A stretch of 60,692 bases of DNA, the filler included, from Basidiobolus ranarum (lineage: Eukaryota), in the NCBI GenBank assembly GCA_040143965.1. It is 4 parts of 4 records of this genome, joined end to end, with 100 filler letters (N's around TTAATTAATTAA, not from the genome) between each part and the next. Parts side by side here need not be neighbours in the genome. Positions count along the whole stretch, not along the records: positions 1 to 15,136 come from JASJQH010000392.1; 3 more parts are not named here. One strand, 5' to 3'. Shown in pieces: positions 487-54,129 of the stretch. The notes under the pieces were generated by a model. The model was given only the letters and a program-made list of their open reading frames with translations. It made no database searches and was not told the DNA's origin. The first letter of the stretch is position 1; every line of letters begins with the position of its first letter. Made by a program: the position numbers and the translations under genes.

Positions 487-933
487 AATACCGTTTTAGT
501 TCTTACACTATGTTGCTATCAGTGGTGTAGATATTTCCAATGAATGCATGTGAAAAGTTCTAGCAACAATAAAGGCTATCAATGAGCTTAGCTCTAAACA
601 AGTGAACTCATCATAAAGAAACCTCTTGATTCCTGACTGAAAAATCAGCTTTTTCAATTAAATTTGGAGTAGAGCTAATTTACAATGAGCATGCCAAATA
701 TCTCTGTTAGCAAAATCCAGATATTCACGTGATGGAGATATATTCCAGTATACATATATCTCCATATTCGTCAGCTAACACTCACATTATTATTATTGGT
801 TCATTCAATCAATCGTTTTTTTTTCAAACTAGCAGACAAAAGGAAATGCTAAGAAAACTTTTTGACTCGTCTCTGCTCCGTGCTAACTCAACCAAAAGTT
901 TCTCGGCGAGTTTAAAACACAAAAGCTGCTGTT

Positions 934-2921
934 ATGGTAAGTTTTCAACGATAAACTCAAATACCAGCACACTATCTACTTTTGTACAAACCATTTGTGG
1001 ACATACATTTCTACCTTACAGTATCCTAATTTCTTGAACCTAATGGAATTTTTTAATTCAGTACCAACCGGAAGATTCTCCTGACAGTGCTGACCTCGCA
1101 GCCGCTTATGAACGTGAGGCTTTAGCTCTTGAACGTGAAGCTTCACAGCAACATGATATATCAGCGTATGAAGATCATGGGGGAATTGCTGTTCAACATC
1201 ATGTTCTTAGTCATTCTCCTAGTATGCACCACAATAATGAAGTTGCCCATGCAGTTATGCATGGTCACATTAAGCATGAAGGCCATGAAATTTCTGTAAG
1301 TTAATACTACTACGCTTCTGAAGAAGCTTCATATACTAAAAGAAAATCTATCCTTGGATAGATTCACCCGGATGATTTCTCGACCATGAACCCTTCTATT
1401 CTCGCCAGCTTAGACACCAACTTGCAAACCTTAGCTGGCCTCGTTAGTATGCCACCATCTGCCAACAATTTATCGTCAGTTCATTCGGGAGTGGCCACAT
1501 CTATCGTCACTAATTCGATAGTCCCTTGTAAGAGAAAAGACCGCGAACGTTGTGCTTGGACACCCGAAGAAGACAATCTCCTTAGATTGGCTGTTCAACT
1601 TTATGGTGATAAAACCGAGAAATGGGCAAAGATTGCCGCTTGTGTCCCTGGTCGCACGAACAAAAATTGTCGTAAAAGATGGTTTCATTCGTTAGATCCT
1701 AGTTTACGTAAAGGTGCATGGACACCTGAGGAGGATGAGTTGCTCAGACAAGGTGTCGAGCGGTATCAAGGCCAGTGGAGCAAAATCGCTGAAGCCATAC
1801 CAGGGCGTACTGATGATCAATGTGCCAAGCGTTGGAGAGAAAGTTTAGATCCTTCAATAGATAGAGCCGAATGGTCTCCTGAAGAAGATGGACTTTTGCT
1901 TGAAAGATATGAAGAGTTAGGAAGTCAGTGGCAAAAGATATCCCAGTTTTTTCCAGGACGACCTGGTTTACACTGCCGAAATCGGTGGAGAAAAATCCAA
2001 CGTAGTATGAATCAAAAAAGTCGCGAAAAAGAAAAGCTCACTCAAGCATTAATGGCGCCTGTTGAAAGTAAATTAACACATGATATACTTCATACACCAG
2101 AATCGATTGTTGGTGCTGATTTTTCAGTTATTGGCCATCCGCACACGTTGTTGCATCAGTCGGAACTTCAATTGGGAGACCATGAAGGTCAGCCTTATGG
2201 CTGTGGTATTGACAACTGTATAGCTAGCTTTGGAGATTCAAGTGGTCTCTTTTATCATATGAAAGTGTCGCATCCTCGAATTGACTCATCTCTAAGGCCA
2301 TACAGATGCGGTTTATTTGGATGCAACAAAAAATACAAAAATATCAATGGTTTGACGTATCATATCAAGCATGCCAAGAACACATCTGGTCATGGTAGTT
2401 CAAGTATTCATGGCGGATTAGATCAAATAGAAAAGCCATATAGATGTCCGCATGAAGGGTGCGATAAGAGTTATCGCAACCCCAATGGTCTACAGTATCA
2501 CCAGAATCATGCTCATGGACCCCAAGAAGACGAGATGGAAAAGCCATTTATTTGCTCAGTCGAAGGCTGCAATAAAACCTATATGAATCCCAATGGGCTA
2601 GCTTATCATTTTCGACATGGCCATCCAGAGGTAATTGTAGATCCATACTGCTCCCTTATGACACGATAACTGATAAGATTTATTGTGTAGCTTCTTGACT
2701 CTAGCTATTTTGCCGTTGCTGATACAGAGCTAACGCCTGAACATGAACAAGTGCACCATCAAGAGGGGCATATTCATTCTGAACATACAATGCAACACGA
2801 TTTTCAAACTCACGAGCACCTGCAGCATCATGAACATACAGAGCACCTTTCACACCATCATGATGAGCTACAGGAGCATCATGGACATGAGCTTACGGAA
2901 GAATTATCACCACTACGCTAG
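934..2921 (+). CDS. Bas1-like three-repeat Myb transcription factor with four Sfp1-type C2H2 zinc fingers and His-rich termini
   Basis: Exons 934-936 (ATG only), 1062-1295, 1362-2630, 2691-2921, with GT-AG introns in frame. Myb repeats WTPEED..W..IA..GRT...CRKRW and RPGLHCRNRWRKI; fingers such as KPYRCPHEGCDKSYRNPNGLQYHQNHAH. Confidence 0.9.
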
Positions 2922-4835: not shown

Positions 4836-6078
4836 TTCAAATATCCACCTCTAATCTACATTGAAGAAAGGGAAAGTGCCGCGTTTATAAGCATCAAATG
4901 AATCTCCAGTCAAAGCATGTGGTGCATGAAACTTGCCTTACTTCTGAAGACACTTTAAGTTACTTGATATAAGTAAGAGAGCAATTGAGGTAACTCTTGA
5001 TGCTGACAATATTTGGTAGTTAGCTCTGTGATTTAGCGTCACTAACTATCGATCTTATTCACTCTCCAGATTTGATTAAGACTAAGAGATTTGATTTGGC
5101 ATTGAACTAGTGTGAGGGTTAAATCTACACACAACTTGACTCGTATTCTTGAAATCCTTTCTAATTTTTGATTGTTGATATTAACCTTTTTTCAGCGTAG
5201 TCCATTATTCTGCATAGCCTGATCTCATGGTGTTCAGAGCACACAGGCTTCTTTTGCGGATATGTTTGATGCTCGCCTCGGTTTCTACAATATTGAGCGC
5301 AACTATACTCAGATTAGCTCTGCACTTACCACGCACGTAGTACAATTTGTACTCTCGAAGTTTGCTTCAGAAATCCAACCATGCCCTGCCCTGAATAGTT
5401 AGATGCATTCGGTATGTTGGATCATATACAGTGTGAGCTACGACAATCCCACAAGTGTAGAGGTGATTCGATTTCAAGGTTTGCAACGATGGAGGTTCAT
5501 TCGTGAGCCATAGTCGAGTTCAAATGCCACTTGGAAACATGCTAGGATGTTGCTCAGCACCTATCATCCTTTACTGGTAAACCTTTGAAATACTACGATC
5601 CCTCACAAGTAGAACTTGTTCGAGATCGATGCAAGAGAAACCATAAAAATGCGGGCTCTATTGGTCTGTAATAATGAATCAACCAAGGTCCATCACTGTA
5701 TGAGCAAGGTGCATCATTATGCATTGCTAACAGGGAAAGCTATTTTGAGGATGCATTGTGCGGATCTCAACCTGAACAATGCTAATCGCATCAAAGGTAC
5801 CAACAACACAGCCCGCGTAGGCGGGGTAGGCAATAAGTCTTCGGGCAATTCACGATCATTGTTTGGTAGTGTGCGAGGTAACCTCCGTCGATACATTCAT
5901 CAGAAACTGGATTGGCTACCATTCATGTTAAATAGTTCATGTCGCTTACATTCGCCCCTAGTGGTTGGCCCGTCCCCATTCTTCTACCAATTCTCACTTG
6001 GTTCTTTACTAACATTTTAACCGCTAGTATTTAGCCTTTTGCCTCCTCCGCCACCAATTTCTTTGTTTTCCAGCAGAT

Positions 6079-6910
6079 ATGCAATCCAATGACAACTTCC
6101 TATCTGCGAGTGCGTCACTCATAGACAACTCCGCTGGGGGAGGGCATTTTATCTCTACCTCTAATGGAATGGAGGTTGCCTCATCTCCTTTGGACTATCA
6201 AAAGATCTTGGCCAACAAAGAGATGATACAGGACGCGTTGGTTGGTTCATTGATAGGTGTTTCAGCAACACTAGTAATTGTCGTTGGGGTACTAATATAC
6301 TTGGTCATCTGGATACACAAGCAAAAACAAACTCATTCCGAACAGGTTTTCATGCACCAATATCTTTATACTTCGCCTCACATTAACTTACTTTCCAACC
6401 CAAATGTAGAGGTATGAAACTGGTACTAGGTTTTCATATGATATATCCCCATCTAATCGGGATTCCATTATCCCGGATGACTTTTTACCTGGGCAAATGG
6501 CTGCTCTTATCCCGCCTACAACTGATCGCTCGTCTTTACCACCCGATCAGAGTAAAGAGAAGACAGCTCGGAATGGCTCGCTATTGTATAAAAACCCGTA
6601 TTACCTTCAGCGTTTAGGTGATCAGGTACCCACCACCGATCTGATCGCTACGCCTAGAACTTTCACTAGGACTACTTCTTGGCTTATGAGTAGGCTTTCC
6701 GCCACCAATCTCCCTCATGTAGTTGCCGGATCACGGCGGCCGAAACCAGGGCCAGTTGATACCCATACACCTCCGCAGATAGAAAATAATGAGATTACGC
6801 CGATCATTATGTATCATTCTCCACTTCCACCGTGGACAAAACGTCGACCCGATAGTGCTCTTGCAGCGCACGCTATCGAAGAGGAGCAAGAAAGGGAAGA
6901 TCTCACTTAG
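6079..6910 (+). CDS. Hypothetical single-pass membrane protein; 5' exons probably extend upstream toward ~5227
   Basis: TM segment LVGSLIGVSATLVIVVGVLIYLVIWI followed by basic HKQK; intron 6346-6409 joins in frame to the 6497-6910 ORF; signal-peptide-like ORF at 5227 could not be linked firmly. Confidence 0.55.
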
Positions 6911-7234
6911 AATTAAGTGTATATAGCAGTGGGGCCCACATTAACGTATTAGCGCCTCACTAGCATGGAGATAAAGTAATATACCTTCTATCAGAGTCAA
7001 CAAGGTCACAAGCATCAACAATCCCGAAAAGCTATCCTCAATCAAGCCTTTCATGTACAGCACATATTTCATATTAAACGCGCTCATGCCATTCAAAGAC
7101 TCCAAGGATAAAGGCCATAACCACTAGACATCCATTCCCATCGTTCATATCAAAATAAACATCCTTGTACATGAAAGGTACTTGTGGAATAGAGACTATT
7201 TATTTCTTACTGCTATACAACGCAGTTCTTCGTG

Positions 7235-8728
7235 TTATAAGATTGCATTCAGAACATCAATTAGTTGATCTACCTCGTCAAGAGTATTGTAATGAACCAT
7301 GGAGACTCGCACCACACCTCCATATAACCCTAACTGATCTTCCACCAGTCTCTTAGCATACATATGTCCCCAACGAATGCCAATCTTTTGTGATTTATCC
7401 ACAAGTGCAACTACTTGTTCACTATCAATATCCTTCACAATAAAGCTAACGGTGGGAACTCGCAATTCTGGTTTAGAATCAGGCACTCCAATGATCCTGA
7501 CGGTTTCTTTCGAGTTCAAGAAGTCGATTAATCTTTTGGTTAAAACGCTCTCGTGCTCAGTGATCTTCTGGAAAGCTCGGTTGAGGTTTTCCTGAGTGAT
7601 GGTATTTGAAAGATCTCCGTCCGCTCCGAGTTTGTTGAAATACTCCACTACAGCACCGACAGAATATGTTAGTTCGTAATTCAGGTTGCCTGGCTGAAAT
7701 TTGTATGGATAATCATTCTCCGCAATGAAATAATGATTTAACGAGCCTAGCTCCTGCATGCAGGATTTACGTGAGTAAAGTACTGATATATGAGGCCCGT
7801 AGACTTTGTACCAACTAAACACATAGTAATCAACTTGAAATTCTTGCACATTGACACGCCTAAAAGAGTATGTTATGGTGAGTGAATTAATTTCAAAAAG
7901 GAATTCCCTTAGCCATTACCTGTGTGGACTATACGCAACACCATCTACACAAAGCTCTGCTCCAGGTATTTTGTGAACCATCTCTGCAATCTTCTTTACG
8001 TCGTTGATAGTTCCCAATATATTGGAGCAGTGGGTAACGGCAACCAATCGAGTGTTACTGTTAAGAAGGCCTTCTAAATCGTTCAAGTCAAGTAGCAGTG
8101 TGTCTGGGTTGGCACTCCAATAATTAACCTTTAGACCTTTACGTTCGGCCATCCTGACGAAGGAACCAATATTTGCTAACGAAAGTAAACAAAAATTCAC
8201 TTGATAAAAGGGCATTGATAGGCTGTTTTCATTCAAATAACCTTTTACCTTCATGATCAGTATTTGTGACAATGATTTCTTGACCGGGTTTTAAAGTACA
8301 CTCCATCGCTTTCGATAGATTCGCAAGAAGCTGAGTAGTAGAAGAGCCAAAAATGCATTCCGAAGGCTCCTTTGCATTCATAAATAACTGTGCCGCGCAT
8401 ACTCCCTCATCTACTCTTTTTGAAGCGCTAATGCTAGCCGGATATGTGGCACCCTGATATGTTGTTGAATTGAGAATGGGATTTTGAATGATACAAGCCT
8501 CTATGACTTACCAACTGAACGTTTGTATGTAGGAGATAGTCGGATATCCTTTGCGCAACTGCTTCTAATACCTTTAAAAGTATGTTGGTTAGAACCTTGA
8601 CAAGTAGTTGATGATCGGTAGGTAGGGTAACGCTTCACCTGAGAACCACCAGCATTCTCGAAGTATACAAAACCATTCGAGAGAGCGGGGAAATGTTTCC
8701 GAACCTCGTTGATATTTAGAGGGTTCAT
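7235..8728 (-). CDS. PLP-dependent aminotransferase class V, cysteine-desulfurase-like (VC1184/UstD-related) protein
   Basis: VRKHFPAL..YFENAGGSQV, THCSNILGTIND, VDGVAYSPHR, FSWYKVYGPH (PLP Lys), VRVSMVHYNT; several short introns. Confidence 0.88.
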
Positions 8729-8751
8729 GATAATGAGTTTGCAACTTGTCG

Positions 8752-8816
8752 ACAAGTGTGGATGGTATTTAAGTGAAATATTATAACAAGTGTGGATGGT
8801 ATTTAAGTGAAATATT
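8752..8816. repeat. 31-bp direct repeat (2 copies, 34-bp period) just upstream of the PLP-enzyme start codon
   Basis: acaagtgtggatggtatttaagtgaaatatt at 8752-8782 and 8786-8816. Confidence 0.9.
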
Positions 8817-9313
8817 GTTGAACAAACTTTTCTCATGCTTCGAGAACAGAATGAGTTTACATCATCAGGTGTCATGTCAAACTCCCACCGTATCATACTG
8901 AAATGGCTATTCGATCTACTGACAATCGACTCATCATTATCGGGAATTATTCTACTTTGGGAAAAGGACGATGGTTACACCAACAGTCGACCTTGAATTC
9001 TCACACTCTGTAGTCATTCACAAGCCACAGAAAGAAACGGTCAAATTTGTAGCTCACGTATCCAAAATATAAAAAATAAATTCCTCTCTTATTCTCAGAA
9101 TGGACCAAAACCATTTAGGTCTCCAACATGAACCTGATTGGTAATCAACGGTGTAAATGGTTCAATTTATTAGTGTTCATGCTCAGGTGATTATAATAAT
9201 AGCATGGGAGTCATGTAACAAGCTTCCAGCTAAAGGCAGCTAATCAAAATACCAACTGCAATATACCTGCCTAAATTAAAAAAGAATACAACAGCTTACT
9301 TCCCACCTATTGA

Positions 9314-9665
9314 TCAAACGGAAGTGGTATTCATGTTGCTCTTGTTTTCACGCTTACTTGCATAGTACATCGAGCCTCCCGCAAGGGCCAAAAGTGTAAA
9401 TGTCTGAGAGTAAATTCTATATTTCAAAAACTGTTGTCCAGCAACGCGATTCCCTTTTTTAAGATTTAATGTAGCTCCTACAAGAGTAGCGATTGTAGCC
9501 AATGTACCTAATCCCAAAGATGTTAGCAAGTATTTCGTGCAAGTATCGTTATTTATTATTACCAATGACGACGAGAGGTTGCTCTTTACTATTCTTGATC
9601 ATGCGTTGCCAAGCATTCTCGTAACTGCTTGACTTGAAATCCTCTTCGTAGATTACTGACGACAT
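9314..9665 (-). CDS. RCF1: HIG1-domain respiratory supercomplex factor (Rcf1-like)
   Basis: MSSVIYEEDF..AWQRMIKNSKEQPLVVIG, one intron, then TLATIATLVGA..QQFLKYRIYSQTFTLLAL. Confidence 0.85.
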
Positions 9666-10054
9666 ATGAATAGTCAAGGGAAGAGACTATATTATGCGAA
9701 TCTGAGATAACTTAAGTTGAGGTCATTCCCTCAAAGAATATCCTCATATAAATGGCCGAGCGGAACACTCTTCATTTGTACATATTAAATCCTGAGAGTT
9801 CTGGATTCAATAAACCATCTAGTCTCTTGCTCGTGTGGTGTTTACTAGTGGCTAAGCAGTGAAGTGGATATTAATAGATCAAATTTATTATTCAAATAAT
9901 ACAGGGGGTCACTGATTGAAAATTAATGTTTACCAGTAATCAAATAAATTCTATCCCTACAGAAATAAACAAAAAAGGTGCTTTATTCACAAAATATTAT
10001 CAAAAACAATTATGAAAGCATCATGGGATTATATTTAACATAACGATACAACAA

Positions 10055-13000
10055 TCAATTCTTGCGATTCCTCAGTCGTGTCTGACGAGCTGGAACCTTG
10101 CTACTCGTAGTATTTTTGGATCTACTGGTAGGTTTCGAAACTTCTGATGCCTTTGTGCGCTTGCGCGTAACAGGTGGAATACTTTCCTCTTCTGGCTCTA
10201 TGGTAGCTTTACGCTTGTTGGTTGTTTTCGTACTCCTTGTATGCTTAGGACTAATATTCTCCTCTTGTTTCTTTCCATACTCGACACTGTTGACAACCTT
10301 TGCTCGAGTAACTTTCTTTTCTACTGGGTTGCTTACATCCAATTGTGAGGTTTCTGGAAGTTGCACCTTCTGTCTCAAACTGGAAACATTCTTGCCGGTG
10401 CTAATACTCTTTTTGGAGTTATTACGTTTCGACATGCGACTGGACTGTAAAGATGTATCTTCTATAACTTTAGCTCTGCGTAAGCTTCGTTTAGTAGATT
10501 TTTCTTCAGCGTCCATGTCTTTGACCTGATCATCTTTGACATCGGCCTGTACAGGAGAGATTTTATCATTGGATGAATGCTTGGGAGCACGAGTAGAGCG
10601 AGTTTTACTACTCTTAGTTTCATCAGACTTGGATTTGGCTACATGACTAACGCGACTAGCTCCACGGGTAATGATCCTATCTTCCTCCGCAGCGTTCTTC
10701 TCCGACTGACCAGCCTGTGATACAGCTTCGATGGTAGTCGGGCGCTTACTACGAAGTTCTCTGGGTTCGAATTCAACTTGTGCTAAATCAACGGGTTCCA
10801 ATTGTTCAGTCCGAGGAATATCCTTGATGACACCTACGAGTCTGCCACCACGTGTTTCAAGTGTTTTCCTCGATTTAGCAGCGTTGAGTACTGGCTCTTT
10901 ACCGCTAGTTGCTTGAGTGCGAGTACGACGACTAGCAATTTTTGATGAAGGTTCTATCATATCCTCAGATTTTTCTAGAGTAGATTCTTTTTCTATGATG
11001 TCGTGTGTATTTTTCATAATTGGTTTTCTGACTTTCTTACTAGCACGGGTTGTAGATTGAAGTGCACGAACAGCATCCTCACCTTCATCTCCTTTGTCTT
11101 TCTTCGAGCGTGTTTTGACCTTCTCATCGATATGAGTTTCTGAGATCACTTCGTTTGATTCATCTATTGTTCGCTTGGTACGACGAGTACGTGGTTTAGG
11201 CTGCTCGCTAGGATCTGTAATAGCTGTGTCGATATCTACGTTTTCAATTACAGGTTTAAGTTCCTGTTTAATACTTTGACGAGTAGAACGAGGACGTATA
11301 GGTGTATCAATTTCTTCTGAGATGGCTTCCAGGGCAGTCTCTGTGATTTTTGCTGCTGTAGTTGCTCGCGTGCTAGATCTGGTAGGGCGACTGGTTGCAA
11401 GGCTTTCGTCATCGAGTTCTGGCTTCTCCTTCTTGGAACGTGTAGCCCTTATAGATGATCTAGTGACTCTGGTTTCAACTTGAATGGTCTTTGAAATTGA
11501 TTTGGAAGCTGAACGAGTCATACGTTTAGTAGTGGTATAGGGCTCCTCTTCCGGACTCTGACTGTTGGTATCACCTGACTCCTCTAACCGGCTTTCTCGA
11601 CGCTTTGGTGTCCTTTCGATATCAATTGGAATCATGGTAGAATCAATATCTTCATTTACCTTAGCTTCATGGTTCACTTCTGGTTTTGCTCTATCGTCAT
11701 TAGAAGAGTTATTCTCTCGATCGCTATCGACTAAATCACCATGAAGTCCTTCGGCAGAATTGTCACTAATAGCATTACCATCAGGACTTTCGTTGTCTCC
11801 AACTTGTCCTTTTGGCTGCTCTTCTTGCTCTAATATACTAGCCTCATAGATGGGATCTACATCATTTGACTTAGTTGGCGAAGTGGTTGCATTGTTCAAT
11901 CCCATATCGGTAGATTTTTCATTGACCAATTCACTGGTATTGGGTTTTGGTGAAGTCTTTGATTTCGAAGGAGAACTCAAGTATTCGGATAACGCGGTAG
12001 AATAGCTAGATGGAGTCATTCCACGAATGGGTGTACGAGTTGATCTGGAAGCGAGGGGCGATTCAGGAAGATCATCTTCATTGTCAGATTGAACCGGTGT
12101 AGATAAATGAGGTTCGGATAAGATGTTGGCTATTGCTTCATCTTCTACCATGCTCTTGAGATCTAGCTGCTTGGGATCATTCTTCTCTAGGGTACCCAGA
12201 TCTATAGCAAGTTCTTCGGAATCATTCATAGATTGGACTGTTGTAAGGGTCTCTTCAATATAGTCGGATGATAGAGATTTTCGATTGTTTGTGAGAGGTG
12301 ATGGTGTGGCAAGAAGATCACCCATAGCTTCAACTTGACAAATGCTTTCAACAGAACGACTAGTTAAGTCCAGAGATTTACGTCTGGTTGGCGTGGTGCT
12401 CTCAAACACTATAGTAGAGGACAAGGGATGCTTGGCTGTAGATGTGGCCTTTTTACCGGATTGTGGCAGACTAGACATATTCTCGTGAGCAAGATCCACA
12501 TTTGTGGTGGTTGAATTTGAATCTGAAGTGTTTGCTGATTCAGATGAGGTAATAATATTGCTGCATCCACCGTTAGTAGACTGATCCCGCACATCGGCAG
12601 CATGAGCAATATCAGGTTTCGTGTCAGAGCTTAGAGATCCGTTGCTGGTATGGCTGATTTGCTTGCTGTGAGGGCCCACTTGAGATCTTCCGGAATCCAT
12701 ATTAGATGTAGTATCCAAAGTATTCAAACTATTCGACAAATTAGCTATTGATTCTTCACTTGAGGTGACTACATTGAGCAGGGTAGAAGCTAATTGGAGA
12801 GAGTCATTGGTTTCTTCATTTGTATCTAAAGTAATAGGACTGCTCTCTTTGGCACGGAAATGTTTCAAAACATTTTTTAGTAGTGAAGAGGAAGGGGTTG
12901 CCGGTTTAGAAGCAGAAAAGCCCTTTCTAGGGGTATTTTGCCCAGAAGCAGCCTGCCTTCCCTTCTTCAATGGCGAATTGGGAGGAAGTGCTTTGTCAAA

Positions 13001-14483
13001 GATCTCTGGGCTCAAATCAGGGCCAAACCTTACTCGCCTAATAGATGCCACACTAGTAGATCCTAGAGAACTTCCAAATACATCTCTTAATCTACTTTGA
13101 GATAATGCAGGTGTGCCGGTAGGGGTTTTCCGTCCACGCTTCAGTGGTGAATTTGGTGGAAGAGCTTTATCAAAGATTTCCGGACTCAAATTGGGCCCAA
13201 AAGTTACCTTGCGACGAGAAGCCTCTTTCTCTTTTGTGTCACTGGGGTCCGAGGCTACCTCATCCAATAAATTTGTCGAGGTGAAGTTTCCAAGGAGATT
13301 AGTATGATCAAGCAAAGAAGATCTTCGCCTGGATGAACGGCGACTAGGAGTACTTGGCTGCACGACTGGCGTGGTTTCTATCGACTTTCGCTTTTTAGGA
13401 CTAGAAGCATTGGGGAGAAATAGTGATTTGGGCAATTTGGGGGAGGTGGCTTCAGTGACTGAATTGGTACTAGAAGAGTGGAGTCCAGACCCTACACTTT
13501 CAACTTCGGCAATATGACTTGTCAAGTTTTGGGCATTAGTACCATGTTCAGTACTATGAGAGCTGTCCTCTGAGGAACTTAACTCCAATTTCTGCTTGAC
13601 AATTGAAGAAACATTTTCTTCACTTTGAAAATGCTTGGAGGGACTTTGAGCTTCACTAGGGACGTTGCTAGTTGTATCAGGAATGTTGCTGATATCTTGC
13701 AACTTTACTTCACACGTTTCATTGGCCTCTTGTGCTTGTTTGACCTCAATGTGATGCTTAACTTCACATTGTTTCTCCTCCCCACTCTCATGTGCAACTT
13801 TAATCTTTTTGGCAGCCTGGGTATCTCGATCCTTTGATCCAACTTTTTGATTACGAGATCCAATGACGGGTTTGGCCCCTTTCTTCAAAGATCCGGCCAG
13901 TGAAGCCCCTGTACTCGTTTCGAAAGGTCTAGTAGAGGATGATTTAGATGAGGGTACTTTTGAAGTGACTTTGGGTTTTGCTATTGGACGTGTGAGTTTG
14001 GGGGGATGTGGAGTAGCTCTGGGCTTACTCTCGTTAGATAGTGTGTACTCAAAACGAAAAGTTCTATCATGAATTGCAATAGTATCTTTATCTTTAAGAG
14101 CTCTACGGTCTTGCTTTCCAATACTTTGACCATTAATCATGGTACCATTTTCGCTGAAATTCACAAGGGTAGCCTATTATGCAAAATAAAAGTCAGCTTC
14201 TGTCATTCATCATCATAGCTTTATAACGAATATAAAAACTAACCTGACCCTCTTTTTCGAAGGAAATTTTACATTGAACATCAGAAATTTGTGGCAAATA
14301 TATACGGACATCACAAGAAAGTTGTCTACAGAAAGCAAAAATCCAAGTAAGTTGATGAAATTTGCTACTTTGAAGTACGGACGATACCTACTTTCCGATG
14401 AGGAATTCTTTTTTGTTGATAGGGAAAGTCTTGAAATCTCCGCCGACTCGACGAGTAACTATGAAGCTTCCATAGTATCCCAT
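10055..14483 (-). CDS. Ki-67-like protein (~1430 aa): N-terminal FHA domain, two PP1-binding modules, long disordered S/T/P-rich region, basic C-terminus
   Basis: Exons 14483-14392, 14325-14244, 14173-10055 give MGYYGSFIVTRRVGGDFKTFPINKKEFLIGKQLSCDVRIYLPQISDVQCKI..LVNFSENGTMING..LKDKDTIAIHDRTFRFEY; two copies of (K/R)VxFGPxLSPEIFDKALPPNSPLKxG. Confidence 0.85.
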
Positions 14484-15136
14484 AATTCAAGCTTAGGTCG
14501 TGAAAAAACCATTAGAACATAAGTATATTGAAGGTATTTCGGAATTTCAGAAACGCTCTTACCTGGGATTATGATGCTATAAAAGGGGAATGTTAGTAGA
14601 TAGTAAGCTAATCACTTAAATGAGCGCGCTCTCTATTATTCTTTGGTGGTATAGACAAATTAGCTGATAAAGATGTAAATCCATTCATAGTAAATTTTTT
14701 AATACGTGTATTGACTTTGACTATAATGTTTACATTTGAATCAGAGTAAACAAATCAACCTTGTTGCCATTGGGCCTCACCATCACATGTTTTTCGAGTA
14801 TCTAGCCAACCAAATACGATTTCTGCTCACTCCAGCATCAATGCTTTTTACATTACACTTTGATTCAATGATCCAGCTTGGTCAATTGAGGGTAGAGTTC
14901 GAATGTGGGGCCTCTTTAGGGTTGTGCCCTAAATTATTCATAATGTAAGTGTATTGATTTTTAGATTAACAACTCGAACGTGATTTTATTCCAGCCAAAT
15001 AACGCCTGGAACTTACAGAGAAGATGGTCTAGTCGTATCCTACGGTTAGAAGCAGAGAAAGTAACCGCCGCTTGTTCTTTCCCATTTAATTAGTGTCAAT
15101 TCGGGTATGTACCGGTGATGAACATATACTCAGTCG

Positions 15137-15236
15137 NNNNNNNNNNNNNNNNNNNNNNNNNNNNNNNNNNNNNNNNNNNNTTAATTAATTAANNNNNNNN
15201 NNNNNNNNNNNNNNNNNNNNNNNNNNNNNNNNNNNN
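15137..15236. other. Artificial contig spacer
   Basis: 44 N + TTAATTAATTAA (stops in all six frames) + 44 N. Confidence 0.97.
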
Positions 15237-27550: not shown

Positions 27551-29077
27551 TTATACATGAATAACTTGTAGTGCATTAGTATGCCCTACACCTGGCTTGC
27601 AGCCTTGAAGTACAATGACAGTGTCGCCTTGCTTTAGTATCTCCAAATCAACTGCTTGTTCCACGGCCCATTGGATACGCTCATCAACGTCTTGCTGCCA
27701 TCTGTTCCCATTTGCTTTTTCTTCACGAGTAAGAGGGCGTTTAGGAAAAACGAACGGATAACAGCCACGATATAAGTGGATTTGACGAGCAGTTTGTGCC
27801 TCGCGAGTAATGGTTAGGATAGGGCAGTGTGGGCGATACTTGGCAACAAGTCGAGCAGAGTTGCCTGATGTAGACAAAACAATAATGGCTTTGGCATCAG
27901 ATTCATAGGCTGCACTGACTGCAGAGCTAGCAACAGTCTCACTAGTGTCAATGGGTGTATCATGAAGGGCGCGCATCTCATTGAACAATGATTGATATGA
28001 GATCACTGACTCTGCAAGTGCAGCTACGTGTGATTGCATCTCAACAGCTTGAATGGGGAATGTTCCCTTGGCAGTCTCTCCTGACAACATCACGCAGTCA
28101 GCTCCGTCAAGAATGGCATTGGCAACATCTGATACTTCCGCACGAGTAGGACGTGGGTTGTATGTCATCGATTCCAACATTTGTGTGGCGCATATCACCG
28201 GCTTGCCTGCTAAGTTACACTTGGCAATCATTGCCTTTTGAGCAATAAACACTCGAGAAACTGGAATCTCAATCCCAAGATCTCCACGAGCAATCATCAC
28301 TCCATCAGTTTCCAGTAGAATATCATCAAAGTTCTCAACTCCTTGGAATGATTCGATCTTTGCGATGATCTTGATGTTCTTTCCTTCCTCTCCAAGAACC
28401 TTGCGAATCTGACGAATATCCCCGCCTGAGCGAATGAACGATGCAAATACCATATCCACTCCTTGCTCAACTCCGAATCTCAAATCATTGATATCCTTCT
28501 CTGATAGAGCAGGAAGGTCAACGTCGGTCTTGGGAAGATTGACTCCTTTGCGGGAGGCGAGCTTACCACTGTTCATGGCACGAACTCTGACAGCATCCTC
28601 GAGTACCTCAACAACCTTAAACGACATAATACCATCATCGATAAATATGGTCTTGCCAACCTCGATAACCTTTGGCAAGTTCTTGTAGTCGACATATATC
28701 ACCTCACCAGTACCAGCTTCTTTGTATTGCTCGTCAGTGGAGAAAGTCATTTCGTGACCAGTCTTGAACTCTACTTCTTGGTCATTTTGCATAAGACCAG
28801 TACGAATTTCAGGGCCCTTGGTGTCCAAGGCAATAGCAACAGGTCTACCATGCAACTCCTCCATAGATTTGCGAGTGTTTGAGATCACTGAAGCGTGATA
28901 ATCGTAGGAACCATGAGAGAAGTTCATACGAACAATATTCATACCAGCCTTTCTCAAAGCATTTATCATTGGGACGGTGTTAGTTTTGGGACCAATTGTA
29001 CAAATAATTGAAGATTTACGAAGGGTGGGCTCAACATCAACATTGAAACCTGAAAGCCAACCAAGTTCACTATTCAT
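27551..29077 (-). CDS. CDC19: Pyruvate kinase (intronless, complete)
   Basis: [63 protein letters not shown]. Confidence 0.98.
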
Positions 29078-29997
29078 TTTGAGTTATAATTGTAATGTAA
29101 AGCAGAGTAGTAAAGTAACTAAATATTTTAAAGAAATAGTACAGCGTTAAAAGAAAAAGTAAGAAATATTGTTATGTTACCTATTAAATACCAAGTCACA
29201 GAATCAAGTGACAGATAATCATAAATATATAGATCGAGTAATTTACAATCAATATCAATCTCATAGTATAGATGGCGTAGATAGCACAAGATGTCACCCC
29301 GCACTATAATTCTCCTTCCCCATAAATCAGCAAAAAAATATTCAGTTTTGTCAAAACATATCCCCCTCGGCAGGGGCAAGCGATACAAATGCTATATACA
29401 TCGTGCCAAATGGGGAATCCTATCCCAATACAGAACTGAGCATCGAATGAAGGTTAAATTGGTTGGATATCACGTTCCATTTCCCTTTGCCGATAACCAT
29501 CCAATTGTGACGCAATCTCGAATCAATAATGGAAACTGGGTGAGATCCGATAAGGCGATGGCTAATCAGTAGATCTACTGTAACTCCTTACTTGCATGTA
29601 AAGCATTGTTACCCAAGATCGACGTGCACCATATTCCGCTTTAGCCATTGAGTGGAATTAGGGTAGAATTTGGGTTATACACATATATCTTTCCATCTAT
29701 GTGGCGCACACTTATCAACATCACATGAATTTCGTTTTACTCCCATATTGACTGTGGCTGAATAGAATCAAGTCTTGTGGCAACACATCAATGCACCCCT
29801 CAGCACATGAAAGAATATTCGAATATCAAAGTATTTATTATGCTCCATATAAGCGGCCAGTCAAGCATACAAGGGTAGCTCGACTATTTTAGGTCGATAA
29901 GAATTGTTCTATATTTTTGACAAGTGTGAAATTCTGATAAATATTACAAATTAATATGGGCTAAGGGTATTTACTTATATCATCGAGATATAAAATT

Positions 29998-35468: not shown

Positions 35469-37761
35469 TGTATTTCACCGTATTAGCAATCTATAGTAAG
35501 AAATGATTGTTGCTGGCAGTACCTCGCATTCAACACCAAACGCTAAAGGAGTGGTCTATTTAGCATCACCTGGATAAGCCTTCCTTTCTAAACCGCGGCT
35601 ATAAAGCTGTGGTCGCCAAGGAATTAGCTACATGTTGGGAGAAGCACAAAAGTAGGATAGGCTGAATAATTTTTGAATACAGTCTTGTCTAAATATGTAG
35701 TTATGTGATCATGGCTCTATTTGCCTCACAATGAAGATACTATACATTTCATAATTGTTCTAGTTTCTGTCATTATTGGAACATTCGTTACCTACACTCC
35801 AGGGGATAGCTTAAAGGTCGATCTTGACTGAATGCTCATTCTCTATATTATTTCAACATTCTTGTCTACTCTCTGCGTTACTACTAGCATTTTTCTTAGC
35901 TTTAATCCAGCTATTTTTTATGATTTTTGTGCGCTCATCCTGATAGTTTCTTCACCTATCGTGCAACCATCTCTTGATAGAGGAATACCAGACATTTGCA
36001 TACTGCCCCTGGAAGACACAGTGCATACAAGTTGTGAGCAATGTTGTAAGCTACCATATCTCTCAAAACTACCTCATTTCTAAATTACTTGAGATGATTC
36101 TTATGCGGCAAGATCTCCATTTATCTGGCATATAACATGAGGTTGACCCTTAATGTACAATTCTCATTCTAGCTAGAGACTGTTTATCTCAGTAGAATTA
36201 GTTTTATATTCGTAAACTTTGCTATTTCTACAAATATTTGTACGTTTTGTCTCCAGGATGCTGACTGCTTATAGTTGCTTTAGAGTTACGGAAATTAAGT
36301 GATATGTGGTGTTGATTCATCTACACGTGCATGCTTTGTTGACTTGAATGCACTAACATCTCAATTTGTGAACTATGATTCAGACATCCATGCTATAAAC
36401 AGAAGAGTCTCATTAATGCAAATTTCGATGATACTACGAAACTTCAATCCGCTGAACTCACCTGTCTGCAACATGTGTATAATCAGGATGTCAGTATATT
36501 AATTTGTAACACTAACTTCTTGCGCAACTCTCAATATTAACAACAGCCATTTATTGAGCCTTGAAGAAGGGATTTTTGTATAACACCCTGGCCACGAATA
36601 ACAAGGGGCAAACCAGTTTATTAGAAAGTCAATATTTTCGGTGGGGAAAGCAGAGAAACATTTATAGCCAAATATTAAACTCAGCTCCAGTCAGGGAAAT
36701 TCTTAAGCCTACATGCACCAGTCTCTCAACAATCTCTGAGTCATTAATAGCGAGATATGGCAGTTATCGTAGCCTTGTAATACTCTTTGCAACCTATACC
36801 AGTATCCACCGCCTAACAGATTTAGTACATCGTTGTCATTGTATTGTGAGAAACTGGAGTAAATCTAAAGATTGAGATTTGGTCTGCAATTCATTTAAAT
36901 ACCCTCGCTTTGTTGTGTGATAGTCGGTCACATCACACACCTCGAGTGCAGTCTTGAACATAGTCTGAGCATCGTTCTACTTTCCCCTCAATCGACACCC
37001 TATAATATATAGACACTACTACTATTCAGTCATTGATTCGACGGATATCTCAATGCTAACAGAATATATGAATTATTACTGGCTGGGTTTGATTCAATTG
37101 ATGGTAGCTTAGTTATCTGGTTTCAACTCGGTAGTCGGAAGCATCCTCAATATAGGTACGTGGGTACCCTACCAAGAGTCGCTTGAATTGTGCAGTCATT
37201 AACGCATATGAAGGCCTGTATGATAACGCCTCACATTCACTAGATTAGAGTTCAATCAAATACCTCAAGCTTTGCACAGATCTTGCAGAGCACGCGAGTC
37301 TCAATGTACCCCTAAACGATATCAACCTCGAAACTATTCAAATATTAGCTTGAAAGGGGTTGCTTTCACGAAATTAATTATGAGATGAATGCAATTTAAG
37401 CACCGTTGATTCATTGGCCAGCAACTCCATCAAAAGAGTGCTCCAATTGTTTATGGTAATCTATACAGTTCAAATCAAAGACTGGCATGTTTATTTGGGT
37501 TCAGAATTAGGGCTCTGATTTTATCTCACTTGTACAAAGTATACAATTGTGACACAGTCTTCTCAACTGTACATGGCTTTTCTAATCTGGTTGGTCGACA
37601 TTAGTAGTAAACTCGCATTTTCTCCGCAAACCCTTTGTCTATAGTTTACGTATCAAACTTCAACTTCAACCTTAACCGTTCTAGTATATTAACAACCAGA
37701 CAAGTACTGTACTGAGCTAAAGGTTGATACTCTAAAGATCCTTAAAGTAATAGAACAAAAT

Positions 37762-40700
37762 ATGCCTAAATGGCAGCCACTTCCTCGAGTCGCCTACGGG
37801 ATAGCTATCTTCCCCTTTTTATTATCGACTCCTAGCATAGCTGACGATCCACAAGATGACTGTAGAGGCAGCCAGCCACCTTTATCCAATCCTACATCTC
37901 TTCAAGCGACATATCTAGTCAACTTAGAAGTGGGTGATAGCGTTTATGCATTTGAACAATTAGAAGGTTGGTATAAAGGCTACGTAATAACGGCATTTCC
38001 TCCAAATTCACCACCTAGATGTGGTGTATTTCCCGCGAATCACGTTCATATCCGCTCCTACCTACTTGTAGAACAGCAGGAATTATCTTTTGGGAGTGGT
38101 AAAACTCTCGGTGTTTCGTCTCCAAAGATATCACCGCTACTACGATCGAATTCTGAATGTACTTACAAAAACGTTGCTAACTTGAATGTTTCCAGAATCA
38201 CAAACCGTATTCGTCCAATAAGTCTACAGGAAGAATCTGTCGAAGAGGTTCGTCTATCGCCACCCTCAGCTTCTCGTATGACCGCTTATACGACGACAGG
38301 TGGATTCTCTGAACCATTGGCTGATTTTATCGCTTCCGTCTTGAAAGAATGGTGCTCGTTTTTGCAAATATATTTGAAAAAACGCGAGTATGTATTATTC
38401 AGCCAAGTAAAATATCTTATGGCTACCCTTTTCAAAGGCCGCAGGCAGCTTCTTTCACAAACCTTATCGCTAGAAGATCTGAACAAGCTTCGAGTAGAAC
38501 TAATTCACACGATATTATCTGGTAACAAATTGCAGGGTCTGGATTCTATCGTTCTTCACAAAGAAAAAGGATTTCCAATTAATGAAGCCGATTTCTCTTT
38601 GACAACACTCTACAGAAATCATGTTGAGCTTGCTGGCAATGATAATAATGGAGTTGAGAGCACTCGGTTAACAAGTCCCAACCAATCTCCGCTCGGGCTT
38701 AACTCAGCTCTTGCTCGCAAAAAATTAAGCAAATCGACAGCTGATACCTTCTCCAATTTATACCACCTCTTCTTTGACTTGAAAGCTTTTGTTGCTTCGA
38801 TCTGCTCAACCGGAGAATATACTGAGCTTCAATTCTGTTTGTTCAACAAAACCACTTCCAAGATTATTACTGAGGAATTTCTGATTGTTCTCACATCCCA
38901 AGGGATGCCTCGCGACTCCAACAGGATTGGAAGACTGCATACTTTATTCACAGATTTATCTTACAAAGATATTAGTGATCAAATATACTTGATATGCAGA
39001 ATAGTTCGTGTTGGTAGAACTTTATTGTTGGAGAAATCTAAGGATGGAATTGATTTCCCATCCTCCTCATCAAATGACATCGCGTATCGGGGAAATTCAA
39101 CGAATAGCAAGATAAGCCCGGAGCCAATAAGTTATAGAAGGCCGTTTGGGTGTGCTGTTCTTGCAGTTAGTGATATACTTCAGGCGAATGATCAAGTTGG
39201 CACATTACGTGAGTCTGTTGCGAAGATATTTATTCCGTTGAATGATAGCACATTTTCTACTTTACACGAGAGTATTATAAACCAGACCGGAGAATACGAA
39301 AAATCCTCAAGAGCCGAGAACATTTGCGTTTCATTCCGGGTATTTCAGGGACAAGCACAGTCTTTGATAAGAGAGCATCCAACTCTCCTATTCGACATTC
39401 CCCTGACGCCCAAACTGGGTTTTCCTGATGTAATTCTTCCTGGTGACAATCGAAACGCGATGCATTTAACTATAAGTTGTGGCGAATTTCAGCAAGGCCG
39501 CAGAACAACAGCTAAGAACATCCAAGTTAAGGCAGAAGTACGATTGAACACCGGGAATGGAGCAGCCCTAAATAATGCAATATGTCGTGGGTCTGGAGAA
39601 GCCAATGTAACCGAATATGAATCTGTGATATTCTACCATTCAAACAATCCTAGATGGGACGAGTCTATTAAAATTGAGGTAACTCCGGATATATTCAAGA
39701 ATGCCCATATTTTTTTCACATTCCGACATTGCTCAAGCAAAGGGCAATCCGGGTCGACCATATCTATTGGCAAAGACAAATCCTCTGACAATAATATATT
39801 TGCTTTCGCCTTTTTGCCACTTTCTTTAGATAATCATCACACTATAGTGTCAGATGATATACATTCTCTTACATTATACAAATATGATTCTAAAACTGTT
39901 GCATCAACTTCATACTTGACACGAAGTACACATGTGCCAAGATCCCATATACTTTCGTCATTTGATAGTCTTGATTTAATCAAGAATTCTAATGCATCGT
40001 CTGGACTCTCGGCGCTAAAAGACTCCTTTACTGTGAAAACATTCTTATGCTCAACCAAGCTAACTCACAGCGAAGCATTGGTCAATCTCTTACATTGGAA
40101 AGAGGCATTGCTTACTCGGCACGATATGCGCTCCATATTGAAGAATTTCACCTTTATAGGTGAATTAGAGATTGTGAAATTTCTACAGGATATATTTGAC
40201 GTATTATTCGAACTGTTGGGAGCCCCTCCTTCTTCATTTCAACATGGGAATACTTCTACCAAGCAAAGATCTCACCAACGTCAACCTTCTATTTCCGGCA
40301 CTGATCCCACACTAGACGATTTAGTATTTGCTGCTTTAGTGTTCGTATTAAATATAGTTTCTGATCGACGCTTTACTAATTTCCGACCAGTGCTTGATAT
40401 GTATATCGAAAACCATTTCTCTTCACCTCGTGCAGCTCAGCATCTAATTACTGCAATGAGAAAGTTACTCTCTGATCCAACGGATTCGAGTAAAGCAATG
40501 GGTCTCCGCTCCAGTATAAAAGCATGGGAATATCTATTCAAGCTAGTCGTCAAGTCATGGGGTATTCAAAAAGCTGAAGAAAAAGGGAAAATAATTACCG
40601 ACAGTTCCGGATCTTTATCGCCGACAATTGCTGAGAATACAGAAGACAGCGAAACTAAATTTAAAGCTAGCCTGTGGGGGCTTTTTGAAGATATCAATAG

Positions 40701-43700
40701 GCTGATGTCTCTTACTGATCCACTCTCAGTTCTTGGAACGCAAACCATTGCTCTACAACATTATCATACGATTTTCGATGACTTAGTATCTCGCTTTCCT
40801 AATAACGAACTTACAGATATATCCATTTCATTCGTCAATTCTGTTGCTAGCTTTAGAAAAGGGAACCTTGCACATCACCGGCTTCAACTAATATATCAAT
40901 TGGTTCATGGAGTACTATTTGATTGCCCAGAATCTCGGCATTTGCTAGTCAAGGCTACAGTTGGATGGGTTGAAGAATACTTAAAGCAGCCGATGACTGA
41001 TTATGCGGATTCAGGACAATGGAAAGAGATACTTCGTTTAAGCAATCTAGTTGTGACTGAAATGCTAGGGAAAATCCATTCTATACATCATAAGGTTCAG
41101 CATGGCACCGATCCTAGTGTCAGTGAGAAAAAACATGAGGATGTCGATATTGAGACTATTTTGAGTATATTGCCCCTCTTTATGCAAGCTTATCATAGAC
41201 TTCGTCAGGCATTAGCAATCTCTGAGCATTCCGGTTTCAGTCCTTCCAAGCATAATTCTGGGTTAAGCGGTCCACTATCACCAATTTCATCTTCTCCTGA
41301 CCTTTTAGGCACTGAAATGTCCGAGAGGTACTCCAACGCGTTCGGTGAAACTGCGTCTATGATTATGACCCTCATATCTTTAACGTCGACAAACCAACTC
41401 GAACGCTTCTTTCAACGATTCATGAATAAGGCAGAGTCAGTTGAAGGACTTCAAAACATAATATTGCTACTCGAGATTTTTCATTCTATTCTATCTGAGA
41501 GTGCATTTCCAAAACATTGGTTGAACTTGACTGTCCTTTCGTTAAGGATGGTGTCAAAGGTATTGATTCCTCTTGGCACTGTTCTCAGGAAAAATCTAGC
41601 TAATGCTTCTCGGATATCTGAGCTTCTAACCAATGTTTGGATTAGATTTTATACTGTTCTGATATTTATTCTGGCAAACAAACGACTCAAGGTTGAGACG
41701 CTCAATCCTCAAATCCAAAGTGCCACAGTTTATTTGCTCCAAGACGTTAGAACCCAAGGTGCTGACTTGCTTATATCTATGTGGCTTTCTTTTGAGACAT
41801 TCAAGGCTAAAATAAGTCACGAAAAATATCGGGAAATCTCACTTACTCTTCTGGGTCCGATCTTAGATTTGAATCTCTCACTGCATGATGGTCTTCGCAG
41901 ATGCGCGTTAAATATGTTGTTCTCTATCATGCTCTCAGAATTCGAGATTATGAATGATTTCAAGCACATAGAAGTAGAGTGCTTTAATCGATTTGAGCAC
42001 CTTGTTATGACGGAAACCAAAGGAGATTTAACTACCTACAATTTGTTCATTCAAGGGCTTGTATCTAAAACCGAGAAAGAAGTACGTGAACAATCTTTAA
42101 ACCTCTCTCTGGTGAAGTTGATAGATTCCATCGACAAATTCCTCGAATTGTTGTTGAACGTGCGTGATCTACCTAACGAAGATGAATACGAAGATGAGCG
42201 CATTATGGGTACCATGAAGCTACTCAAGTTCATTAAAATCATGAATCAGGATGATATTTATATCAAATATGTCCACCAATTAGTCGACATGCATCTTCGA
42301 AGCCAGAATTTTGTTGAAGCCGGGATTACTCTCAAACTTCATGCTAATCTGTTAAGCTGGTCTTTAGAAAGTGGCTTAGAAACTGTAGAAGGTCTCAGTC
42401 TTCCCTCTCAAACTTCATTTGAGAGAAAGGAGCTTTTACTACTGAAGGTGCTCCGATACTACGATGAAGGTCAAGCTTGGGAACATGGAGTAGAGACTTG
42501 CAAAGAATTGGCATATCAATACGAACACACTTTGTTCAATTATGATAAACTTTCGGCCATTCTACGTACACAAGCTCAACTTTATGAGAATATATTGCAC
42601 AAAGAGCGTTACTATAGTGAGTATTTTAGAGTCGGATTTTACGGAAAAGGGTTTCCGACTAGCATCCGTAATAAGCAATACATATATCGTGGCTTGACTT
42701 GGGAAAAAATCAGCGCCTTTTGCGATAGAATTCAAAACAAACATCCCTCCGCTCGCCTTCTCAATTCCAATGGAGTTCCACCTGAATCTATACTTAACTC
42801 AAATGGGCAATATCTACAAATTACTGCCGTTACCCCCGAGCCTGACTTGACTCATGCTGCACTTCAACGATTAGATACTGTCCCAGGGCCTATTCGAGAA
42901 TACTATGAAGCCAATGAAGTAAACACATTTAGCTTCTCAAGGCCTGTAAAGAAATTACCTTCCGAGAGAACAGTATCTTCCAGAAATAGTACTCTAATAA
43001 GCAATAAGACGACCTCCCATGAGGGGCATATTGTACCACCTAAAAATACAGACGCTTTGAACGAGTTTTTATTGCTGTGGACGGAAAAAACATTCTTCAT
43101 TACTGAATTTAAGTTTCCATCTTTACTTCGTCGTGCAGAAGTTGTATCTATGATCATAGAGGAACATTCACCAATAGAGAATGCCGTGGCTGCAATGAAA
43201 AGCAAAACTAAAGAGCTATCTGCTCTAGAGAAGAAGTATCAAACCTATGTTGGCACAGATACTTCCAAAATCAATAGCAATCCCTTAGCTATGGCCTTGA
43301 ATGGAGCCATCGACGCACCCGTCAATGGAGGTGTATCAATGTATAAACAAGCTTTCTTAACAGACGAATTTATCAAGCAAAACCCTGACAAGGAACAAAC
43401 CGTGAACCAACTACTTTCGCTCATCGATGAACAGGTAACACCTTTACCAAAGAGACTTGTTAACTATCGATTACAAACATAGTAATATCTTACTTTTAGA
43501 TATTGGTAATCCAGCGCTGCCTTGCGATTCATAATCGCATTGCGCAAACAGAAATGAGACCACTTCATGAGAATCTAGTTATACGTAAGAATTTCCTTTT
43601 AACTCATTATATATAGTGCTTTACTAACTGAGTGTAATAGTTTTCCGCAAAAATTTTGCTGAGGAACTAGTTCGAATCTCTATTAGTAAGCCCTCCATTG

Positions 43701-51181: not shown

Positions 51182-54129
<2,948 letters not shown>

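Follow-up and report, generated by a model that had tools for sequence, protein, structure and literature searches.

Here we describe a Ki-67-like gene of the fungus Basidiobolus ranarum, which is located on the minus strand of a 60,692 nucleotides (nt) long stretch of DNA (hereafter the window). The gene runs from position 14483 to 10055 and consists of three exons separated by two GT..AG introns of 66 and 70 nt. Its start codon, the ATG at 14483, is preceded by an in-frame TGA two codons upstream, and the long third exon occupies a stop-to-stop frame of 1372 codons extending from 14173 to 10055. Joining the pieces by their coordinates (Table 1) gives a coding sequence of 4293 nt and a product of 1430 amino acids (aa) with a single terminal stop. 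This product is identical over all 1430 residues to the database protein P0002, named by both NCBI and UniRef as 'antigen identified by monoclonal antibody Ki-67 [Basidiobolus ranarum]'. An initial annotation of the same DNA had placed two small exons upstream of the long one; this arrangement holds, now with exact coordinates and with the deposited protein reproduced by the spliced model, and the peptide strings quoted there are all found in the spliced protein. The protein is composed of a Ki-67-type FHA domain, two tandem RVxF/KiR-SLiM modules for docking of protein phosphatase 1 (PP1), an acidic middle region rich in serine or threonine followed by proline (S/T-P) and a basic tail.

The FHA domain occupies the extreme N-terminus. 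Exon 3 alone scores 18.3 bits against the Pfam FHA profile, under the cut-off of 20.7 bits, whereas the spliced protein scores 45.9 bits (E = 7.8e-12) over residues 28–92, covering profile positions 2–66 of 67. This gain upon joining the exons indicates that the two small exons complete the domain, as had been proposed. When the whole protein was searched against the PDB sequences, 18 distinct sequences were found at E ≤ 1, the top two being the human Ki-67 FHA (2aff, 4.7e-13; 1r21, 5.5e-13). The alignment with the human domain covers residues 8–118 and passes through both exon junctions, which, along with the agreement between model and deposited protein, suggests that the upstream exons are indeed spliced onto the long exon. 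The next FHA domains in this search belong to CHFR (1.9e-3), Dun1 (0.02) and Rad53 (0.025–0.12). A grouping with Rad53-like families instead of Ki-67 was therefore not seen (E of at least 0.025 for Rad53 against 5e-13 for Ki-67).

The predicted fold leads to the same family. In an AlphaFold2 model of residues 1–508, built on a 33-row alignment, residues 1–100 are all-beta with a predicted local distance difference test (pLDDT) score of 91–98. Foldseek ranks the Ki-67 FHA structures 1r21 and 2aff first and second (E of 5e-10 and 8.7e-10, 37% identity), with target-normalised template modelling (TM) scores of 0.87 and 0.90 and root-mean-square deviations of 1.6 and 1.4 Å; the third match has an E of 1.6e-7 and 19% identity. 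A hidden Markov model (HMM) built from 14 animal Ki-67 FHA domains only gives 99.3 bits for the Basidiobolus domain, 100.9 bits for that of Coemansia and 115.2 bits for that of Jimgerdemannia. The earlier assignment of the domain to the Ki-67 kind is thus borne out by the PDB sequence search, by the fold comparison and by the animal-only HMM.

The FHA domain is followed by the PP1-docking region. The protein scores 87.2 bits (E = 8.1e-25) against Pfam PP1_bind (PF15276, cut-off 27 bits) over two stretches, which are arranged in tandem at aa 379–405 (RKVTFGPNLSPEIFDKALPPNSPLKRG) and aa 437–463 (RRVRFGPDLSPEIFDKALPPNSPLKKG). The docking module claimed in the initial annotation therefore passes the profile approximately three-fold over its cut-off, but two modules are present where one had been claimed. 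The PDB search also retrieved the Ki-67 peptide of the Ki-67:PP1 complex (5j28_C, 3.4e-6) and RepoMan peptides (5inb_B, 4.1e-6, and 5ioh_B; 4–6e-6). The KiR-SLiM has been defined as FDxxLP(P/A)N(T/S)PL(R/K)(R/K)Gx(T/S)P (Kumar et al. 2016, PMC5005033), and its core is described as filling a pocket of PP1 in the structures solved for the complexes with Ki-67 and RepoMan. Among Swiss-Prot proteins, only these two were reported by that paper to carry it in 2016. Both Basidiobolus modules fit FDxxLP(P/A)N(T/S)PL(R/K)(R/K)G through the Gly; the closing Gx(T/S)P lies one residue out of register in copy 1 and is missing from copy 2.

The two modules differ in their RVxF motifs. Module 1 reads RKVTF, with a phosphorylatable Thr at x, and has S-P or T-P sites at LSPE, NSPL and KTP. 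Module 2 reads RRVRF, and its Arg at x is not phosphorylatable. According to Kumar et al. (PMC5005033), Aurora B phosphorylation of the x residue (S507 in Ki-67, T394 in RepoMan) weakens PP1 binding 25–30-fold, and Cdk1 sites within the module are credited with further inhibition. By analogy, module 1 could be gated in the manner of Ki-67 and RepoMan, through phosphorylation of the Aurora and CDK types, while the Arg of module 2 leaves no gating through an Aurora-type site, and this module could bind PP1 more constitutively. Comparison of the 27 core codons of the modules reveals 11 identical, 12 synonymous and 4 nonsynonymous pairs, with 59 of 81 nt identical. The predominance of synonymous differences indicates an old duplication, both copies of which selection has maintained. 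At the nucleotide level the divergence is too great for the modules to appear in a DNA repeat search, which yielded one trivial 9-nt tandem array within the gene and no family of direct repeats reaching 30 nt.

Outside the FHA domain the protein is probably mostly disordered. In the AlphaFold2 model, 299 of the first 508 residues have a pLDDT under 50, and none of these lies in the FHA domain. The whole protein has an isoelectric point (pI) of 9.25 and a net charge of about +26. The S/T-P-rich region and basic tail recognized earlier are both present (Table 1): there are 31 S/T-P sites, 28 of which lie within residues 112–931, and the last 300 aa have a pI of 10.47 and a net charge of +31, comparable to animal tails. 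If every one of the 31 sites is assigned two negative charges, the computed net charge changes from +26 to about −36. The tail is also enriched in 'TR' dipeptides, of which 19 are observed against 5.6 ± 2.2 in shuffled sequences, a number reached in none of 1000 shuffles. No other named homologue has an enrichment as strong. These dipeptides often occur as (V/T/P)TR(S/A), and many form R-x-S/T, an Aurora/PKA-type context.

For the relatives, aa 1–508 were searched with HMMER against 1.84 billion representative proteins, which gave 424 matches at E ≤ 1e-3 and 67 at E ≤ 1e-10; below 1e-30 only the protein itself was found. In a set of 152 proteins, an FHA match was detected by HMM in 146, and an FHA together with a PP1 module in 74, the latter with an HMM built from five modules in which the scores of the seed proteins P0002–P0004 are circular. 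An extreme N-terminal FHA followed by a PP1 module is the rule among the homologues. By the five-module HMM, two PP1 modules are present in two of these 74 proteins (P0002 and P0020 of Anolis). All five PP1-only proteins of RepoMan type (P0003, P0116, P0131, P0137 and P0153) have two PP1 modules each by the same HMM.

Thirty relatives were selected across a rough tree for lookup, and 23 of them could be linked to an organism (13 animals and 10 fungi). The animal proteins are mostly named Ki-67 or Ki-67-like, as in Carassius, Phallusia, Gastrophryne, Dromiciops, Oscarella, Corticium and an Armadillidium cluster; the others come from Coregonus, Latimeria, Anolis, Bubo, Candidula and Callorhinchus (labelled CDCA2). 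The fungal relatives comprise Jimgerdemannia and Bifiguratus of the Endogonales, Coemansia and Mortierella (both given the NCBI name 'antigen identified by monoclonal antibody Ki-67'), the chytrids Chytriomyces, Cladochytrium, Gorgonomyces and Borealophlyctis, and finally Pneumocystis and Kwoniella. Eight of the ten named fungi, belonging to Chytridiomycota, Endogonales, Mortierella and Kickxellales, pass both Pfam FHA and PP1_bind (31.1–47.5 bits for the latter). The Basidiobolus PP1_bind score of 87.2 bits is the highest among the fungal proteins examined, the eight others lying at 31–48 bits. Pfam PP1_bind is absent even at E ≤ 10 from five Dikarya proteins (Pneumocystis, three of Kwoniella, and Cryptococcus depauperatus). 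With FHA and PP1_bind together in eight named early-diverging fungi, the earlier suggestion that this fungus may retain an ancestral Ki-67–PP1 system is, in our judgement, reasonable.

Several individual relatives deserve mention. P0184 of Kwoniella heveanensis, one of these five Dikarya proteins, is called a 'PP1-binding domain-containing protein' in UniRef and has no match to any Pfam family even at E ≤ 10; the Tremellales relatives have what may be a degenerate relic (…RRRASHRLSLVPEGRTFVPLSPMK…) after the FHA domain. P0060 and P0132, two metagenome-derived proteins of about 1100–1200 aa, have a Ki-67-type FHA and no PP1 module by the five-module HMM. P0060 reaches 118.8 bits on the animal-only FHA HMM, and the absence of PP1_bind was confirmed with Pfam for P0132 only. 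P0087 of Callorhinchus milii, which one source names 'cell division cycle-associated protein 2', has both an N-terminal FHA (34.7 bits) and PP1_bind (65.8 bits). The presence of both domains under a RepoMan label hints that RepoMan may have been derived from a Ki-67-like protein by loss of the FHA.

The window itself is made of four contigs, joined by artificial spacers of the form N44-TTAATTAATTAA-N44 at 15137–15236, 30332–30431 and 45519–45618, and therefore only positions 1–15136 are physically linked to the Ki-67-like gene. This agrees with the record of P0002, which places the protein on a contig of 15,136 bases. On this contig, the aminotransferase and HIG1 fragments are its nearest downstream neighbours and represent ordinary housekeeping genes, and the combination of Myb repeats with a zinc finger would be an unusual pairing if it belongs to one gene (Table 1). 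A tRNA scan found no tRNA gene in the 60,692 nt. Neither E2F-like (TTTSSCGC) nor MCB (ACGCGT) elements are in excess of the chance expectation across the window (4 found, with 2.8 and 3.9 expected), and the interval from the ATG to the end of the contig at 15136 contains none.

Table 1. Parts of the Ki-67-like gene of B. ranarum and other genes recognized in the window.
Feature	Position	Strand	Description
Exon 1	14392..14483	-	92 nt; ATG at 14483; codons 1-30 and 2 nt of codon 31; first FHA strands
Intron 1	14326..14391	-	66 nt, GTAGGT...TAG; its removal yields a protein identical to P0002
Exon 2	14244..14325	-	82 nt; remainder of codon 31 to codon 58; FHA core, ...SCDVRIYLPQISDVQCKI...
Intron 2	14174..14243	-	70 nt, GTTAGT...TAG; CTGAC branch-point-like site
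Exon 3	10055..14173	-	Codons 59-1430 and stop (10055-10057)
FHA domain	14045..14483	-	aa 1-101; covers three exons and both introns; Pfam, PDB, AlphaFold2, Foldseek
PP1-binding module 1	13133..13213	-	aa 379-405; RKVTF + LSPEIF + FDKALPPNSPLKRG (KiR-SLiM core)
PP1-binding module 2	12959..13039	-	aa 437-463; RRVRF + LSPEIF + FDKALPPNSPLKKG
Acidic S/T/P-rich, low-hydrophobicity middle	11558..12937	-	aa 471-930; pI 4.6, net charge -32
Basic K/R/S/T-rich tail	10058..11557	-	aa 931-1430; pI 10.1, net charge +36; 19 'TR' dipeptides
Myb and zinc-finger frame (gene's contig)	1365..2669	+	Three Myb repeats (161.6 bits), then C2H2 zinc finger
Class-V aminotransferase fragment (gene's contig)	7238..7915	-	80.5 bits
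HIG1-domain protein fragment (gene's contig)	9317..9598	-	39.4 bits
Pyruvate kinase (other contig)	27554..29083	-	
DOCK-family exchange factor (other contig)	37693..43479	+	1929-codon open frame
WW and HECT ubiquitin ligase (other contig)	51623..53233	+	

From the sequence, the structural model and the analogy with known complexes, we consider it highly probable that the gene encodes the B. ranarum member of a family formed by Ki-67 and bridgin, that is, a largely disordered, chromatin-associated scaffold that docks PP1. Bridgin (Bgi1, CNAG_01903) is the human Ki67-like protein of Cryptococcus neoformans (Sridhar et al. 2021, PMC7794384). In such a scaffold the FHA head would dock the protein onto a phosphorylated mitotic partner, and the basic tail would bind DNA or chromatin without sequence specificity, as the tails of bridgin and Ki-67 do. 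The PP1 modules would then bring PP1 to chromatin at mitotic exit, module 1 being switched off by combined Aurora-type and CDK-type phosphorylation and module 2 being more constitutive. [quoted passage not shown] This phosphorylation-switched mechanism is inferred from the solved complexes of Ki-67 and RepoMan with PP1 and from the experiments on bridgin. The protein could form a coat over the whole chromosome, like Ki-67, or take a seat at the kinetochore, like bridgin.

A number of observations weigh against this assignment, or against parts of it. When 21 named members of the family are aligned, the GR motif of the FHA domain has Lys31 here instead of Arg, a Lys being otherwise found only in Armadillidium, and the SxxH motif has Gln48 (SDVQ) instead of His, a Gln being also found in Phallusia and Candidula. 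Both positions are near-universal in the family, and their substitution may weaken or alter the reading of phosphothreonine by the domain. Ser45 of SxxH, the Asn of NG, and the CD(V/I)R(I/V) and DRxFRFE motifs are conserved in Basidiobolus. Moreover, blastp of the linker (aa 106–375) and of aa 480–1430 against the 151 other proteins of the set gave no match at E ≤ 1. There is thus no detected similarity outside the FHA domain and the PP1 modules, and homology rests on approximately 160 of the 1430 residues. The Ki-67 repeat (KI67R, PF08065) gave no Pfam match at E ≤ 0.1 in P0002, compared with scores of 85.8 bits for Crotalus Ki-67 and 72.2 bits for Anolis Ki-67. This repeat is described as variable even among vertebrates (preprint 10.64898/2026.06.18.733134), and we have therefore treated it as a vertebrate rather than a family-wide feature. 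The only functional data known for a fungal member are those on bridgin, and they place it at kinetochores, not at the chromosome periphery (PMC7794384).

The FHA tree has to be read with similar care. In an IQ-TREE analysis of 29 FHA domains, the 23 animal and fungal members of the family stand apart from six unnamed FHA domains with a support of 98/93, the outgroups being unnamed weak matches from the same search and not Rad53 or Dma1. The tree gives no resolution within the family, 12 of its 26 inner branches being open, and the Basidiobolus domain falls into a basal comb with those of chytrids and Kwoniella; a 134-row FastTree of FHA domains has still lower resolution. Orthology, as opposed to paralogy, is accordingly not proven by the FHA tree.

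Among the alternatives, one keeps the family and changes the function: the protein might act as bridgin does, with PP1 docking serving dephosphorylation at the kinetochore and not a chromosome coat. We regard this as possible, though somewhat unlikely. Bridgin, the only fungal member known to have experimental data behind it, is located at the kinetochore and has its parts in the same order (PMC7794384). The layout of the Basidiobolus protein is bridgin-like, with a middle of pI 4.6 and a tail of pI 10.1, and its FHA matches P0134 of Kwoniella (E = 3.9e-7) and P0114 of Pneumocystis, both from lineages in which the same paper reports bridgin homologues. However, its two near-consensus PP1 modules resemble those of animal Ki-67 and RepoMan, whereas all five Dikarya proteins tested are without Pfam PP1_bind. 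In addition, its FHA is not closer to that of Kwoniella (35.6% identity) than to those of fish Ki-67 (43.1%, the highest to any animal) and tunicate Ki-67 (41.7%).

It is distinctly improbable, in our view, that the FHA domain is degenerate and that the protein is mainly a RepoMan-like chromatin regulator of PP1, in which the FHA would be structural or phospho-independent. The Lys and Gln that replace the canonical Arg and His would fit such a role, and so would the presence of two PP1 modules, seen in 5 of 5 RepoMan-type proteins against 2 of 74 proteins with an FHA and a module. Yet the confidence of the fold prediction is very high, SxxH retains its Ser and NG its Asn, CDVRI and DRTFRFEY are kept, the same substitutions occur singly in animal Ki-67-like proteins, and a Lys is still able to contact phosphate.

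The two remaining alternatives are both extremely improbable. B. ranarum lives in amphibian guts, and contamination by animal DNA or a recent transfer from an animal host could be imagined from the PP1 core LPPNSPLKKG, which is identical to that of frog and snake Ki-67, from FDKxLPPNSPLKKG in module 2, which is as in Gastrophryne and Crotalus Ki-67 while other fungi have PP(S/A/D/Q)TP(V/L)(K/T)RG, and from the nominally highest FHA identity, to fish Ki-67. This is opposed by the low identity of the FHA to any animal (at most 43%) and by a one-residue-shorter 'S(E/D)-NG-T' loop, which is shared with 9 of 10 other fungal rows and with 1 of 10 animal rows, as well as by the position in the basal comb and not inside the vertebrates, the short introns, the lack of Ki-67 repeats and the ordinary character of the contig's other genes, which carry no animal signal. 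Finally, P0002 may itself be an automatic prediction, but an artefact of the gene model, in which the small exons belong to another transcript or are unspliced and the true start lies within the long exon, is hard to reconcile with the canonical introns, the rise of the FHA score on joining, the Ki-67 alignment and pLDDT above 90 across the junctions, and the N-terminal FHA followed by a PP1 module in the homologues.

Ki-67 was long regarded as confined to vertebrates, until the bridgin paper of 2021 and a preprint of 2026 that lists fungal homologues revised this view. The question whether fungal homologues had been reported, raised in the initial annotation, can thus be answered in the affirmative (PMC7794384; preprint 10.64898/2026.06.18.733134; and the NCBI name). 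The main texts of these two sources do not mention Basidiobolus, which may be listed in their supplements, and a full-text search of the literature for both 'Basidiobolus' and 'Ki-67' gave solely an unrelated clinical report. The family, its fungal members and the Ki-67 name of the record are therefore already public, and the locus adds a clear fungal member. Modest new elements are the tandem docks with and without an Aurora-type site, the altered pocket residues of the FHA and the TR-rich tail. Also new is the occurrence of full PP1_bind in early-diverging fungi against none in the Dikarya tested. The KiR-SLiM is conserved across at least four early-diverging fungal lineages.

The Basidiobolus protein offers a natural test of phospho-gated and ungated PP1 docks on one scaffold. 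According to Adl et al. (2019, PMC6492006), Basidiobolus has nuclei of unusual size that contain a large nucleolus in their centre, and its mitoses are screened by no more than fragments of nuclear and cytoplasmic membranes, and many small chromosomes have been reported (Robinow 1963). Large nuclei, a prominent nucleolus and a fragmenting envelope, together with two modules close to the vertebrate consensus, make this fungus a reasonable choice for the question of coat versus kinetochore. A more far-reaching proposal, which we hold as tentative and rather doubtful, is that a Ki-67-like PP1-docking coat with full RVxF and KiR-SLiM was ancestral to opisthokonts, was kept in early-diverging fungi and was reduced to bridgin, a kinetochore linker, in Dikarya. 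The Basidiobolus protein would then be a perichromosomal organiser with a gated RKVTF and an ungated RRVRF dock, and would retain PP1 throughout mitosis, with a second PP1 joining at anaphase.

Compared with human and vertebrate Ki-67, the Basidiobolus protein has an FHA of the same subtype at the extreme N-terminus (E of 5e-13; TM 0.87–0.90), RVxF and KiR-SLiM downstream of it (5j28_C, E = 3.4e-6), and a long, disordered, basic (pI 9.25) and S/T-P-rich chain with a basic C-terminus. It differs in its length of 1430 aa against 3256 aa, in the absence of KI67R repeats, in carrying two PP1 modules where Ki-67 has one, in the FHA residues K31 and Q48 where Arg and His are canonical, in its acidic middle, and in a TR-rich tail without sequence similarity to animal tails.

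In bridgin, the FHA at the N-terminus is followed by an unstructured acidic domain and then by a basic one at the C-terminus, and this order was used for screening its homologues (PMC7794384). As described there, DNA binding by the basic domain is non-specific, and the basic region of Ki-67 can take its place; bridgin is recruited to the outer kinetochore, and PP1 co-purifies with it in the interactome. Homologues are reported across Basidiomycota, Pneumocystidales and Taphrinales, Ki-67 being the metazoan homologue (PMC7794384). The Basidiobolus protein shows the same succession, with its FHA at aa 1–101, acidic region at aa 471–930 and basic region at aa 931–1430. The Kwoniella protein matched by its FHA has relatives reaching to Cryptococcus depauperatus at 70% identity. 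Two full PP1 modules are present in Basidiobolus, while none of the five Dikarya relatives tested passes Pfam PP1_bind.

The preprint (10.64898/2026.06.18.733134) describes non-vertebrate Ki-67-like proteins, including those of Malassezia globosa, Mycoemilia scoparia (Kickxellales) and Paramicrosporidium saccamoebae, with two PP1 motifs in some species. These proteins share with that of Basidiobolus an N-terminal Ki-67-type FHA, an [RK]-x(0,1)-[VI]-{P}-[FW] motif for PP1, high disorder, a basic pI, S/T-P sites and a net charge that phosphorylation would reverse. The motif scored in the preprint is the short RVxF expression and not the extended KiR-SLiM used here. RepoMan (CDCA2) has the same PP1-binding module, and two modules occur in all five PP1-only proteins, as in Basidiobolus. 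With the exception of the CDCA2-labelled protein of Callorhinchus, the RepoMan-type proteins of the set have no FHA and no other similarity to it. Filing the Basidiobolus protein under RepoMan, that is, PP1_bind without an FHA, was rejected on account of its N-terminal FHA.

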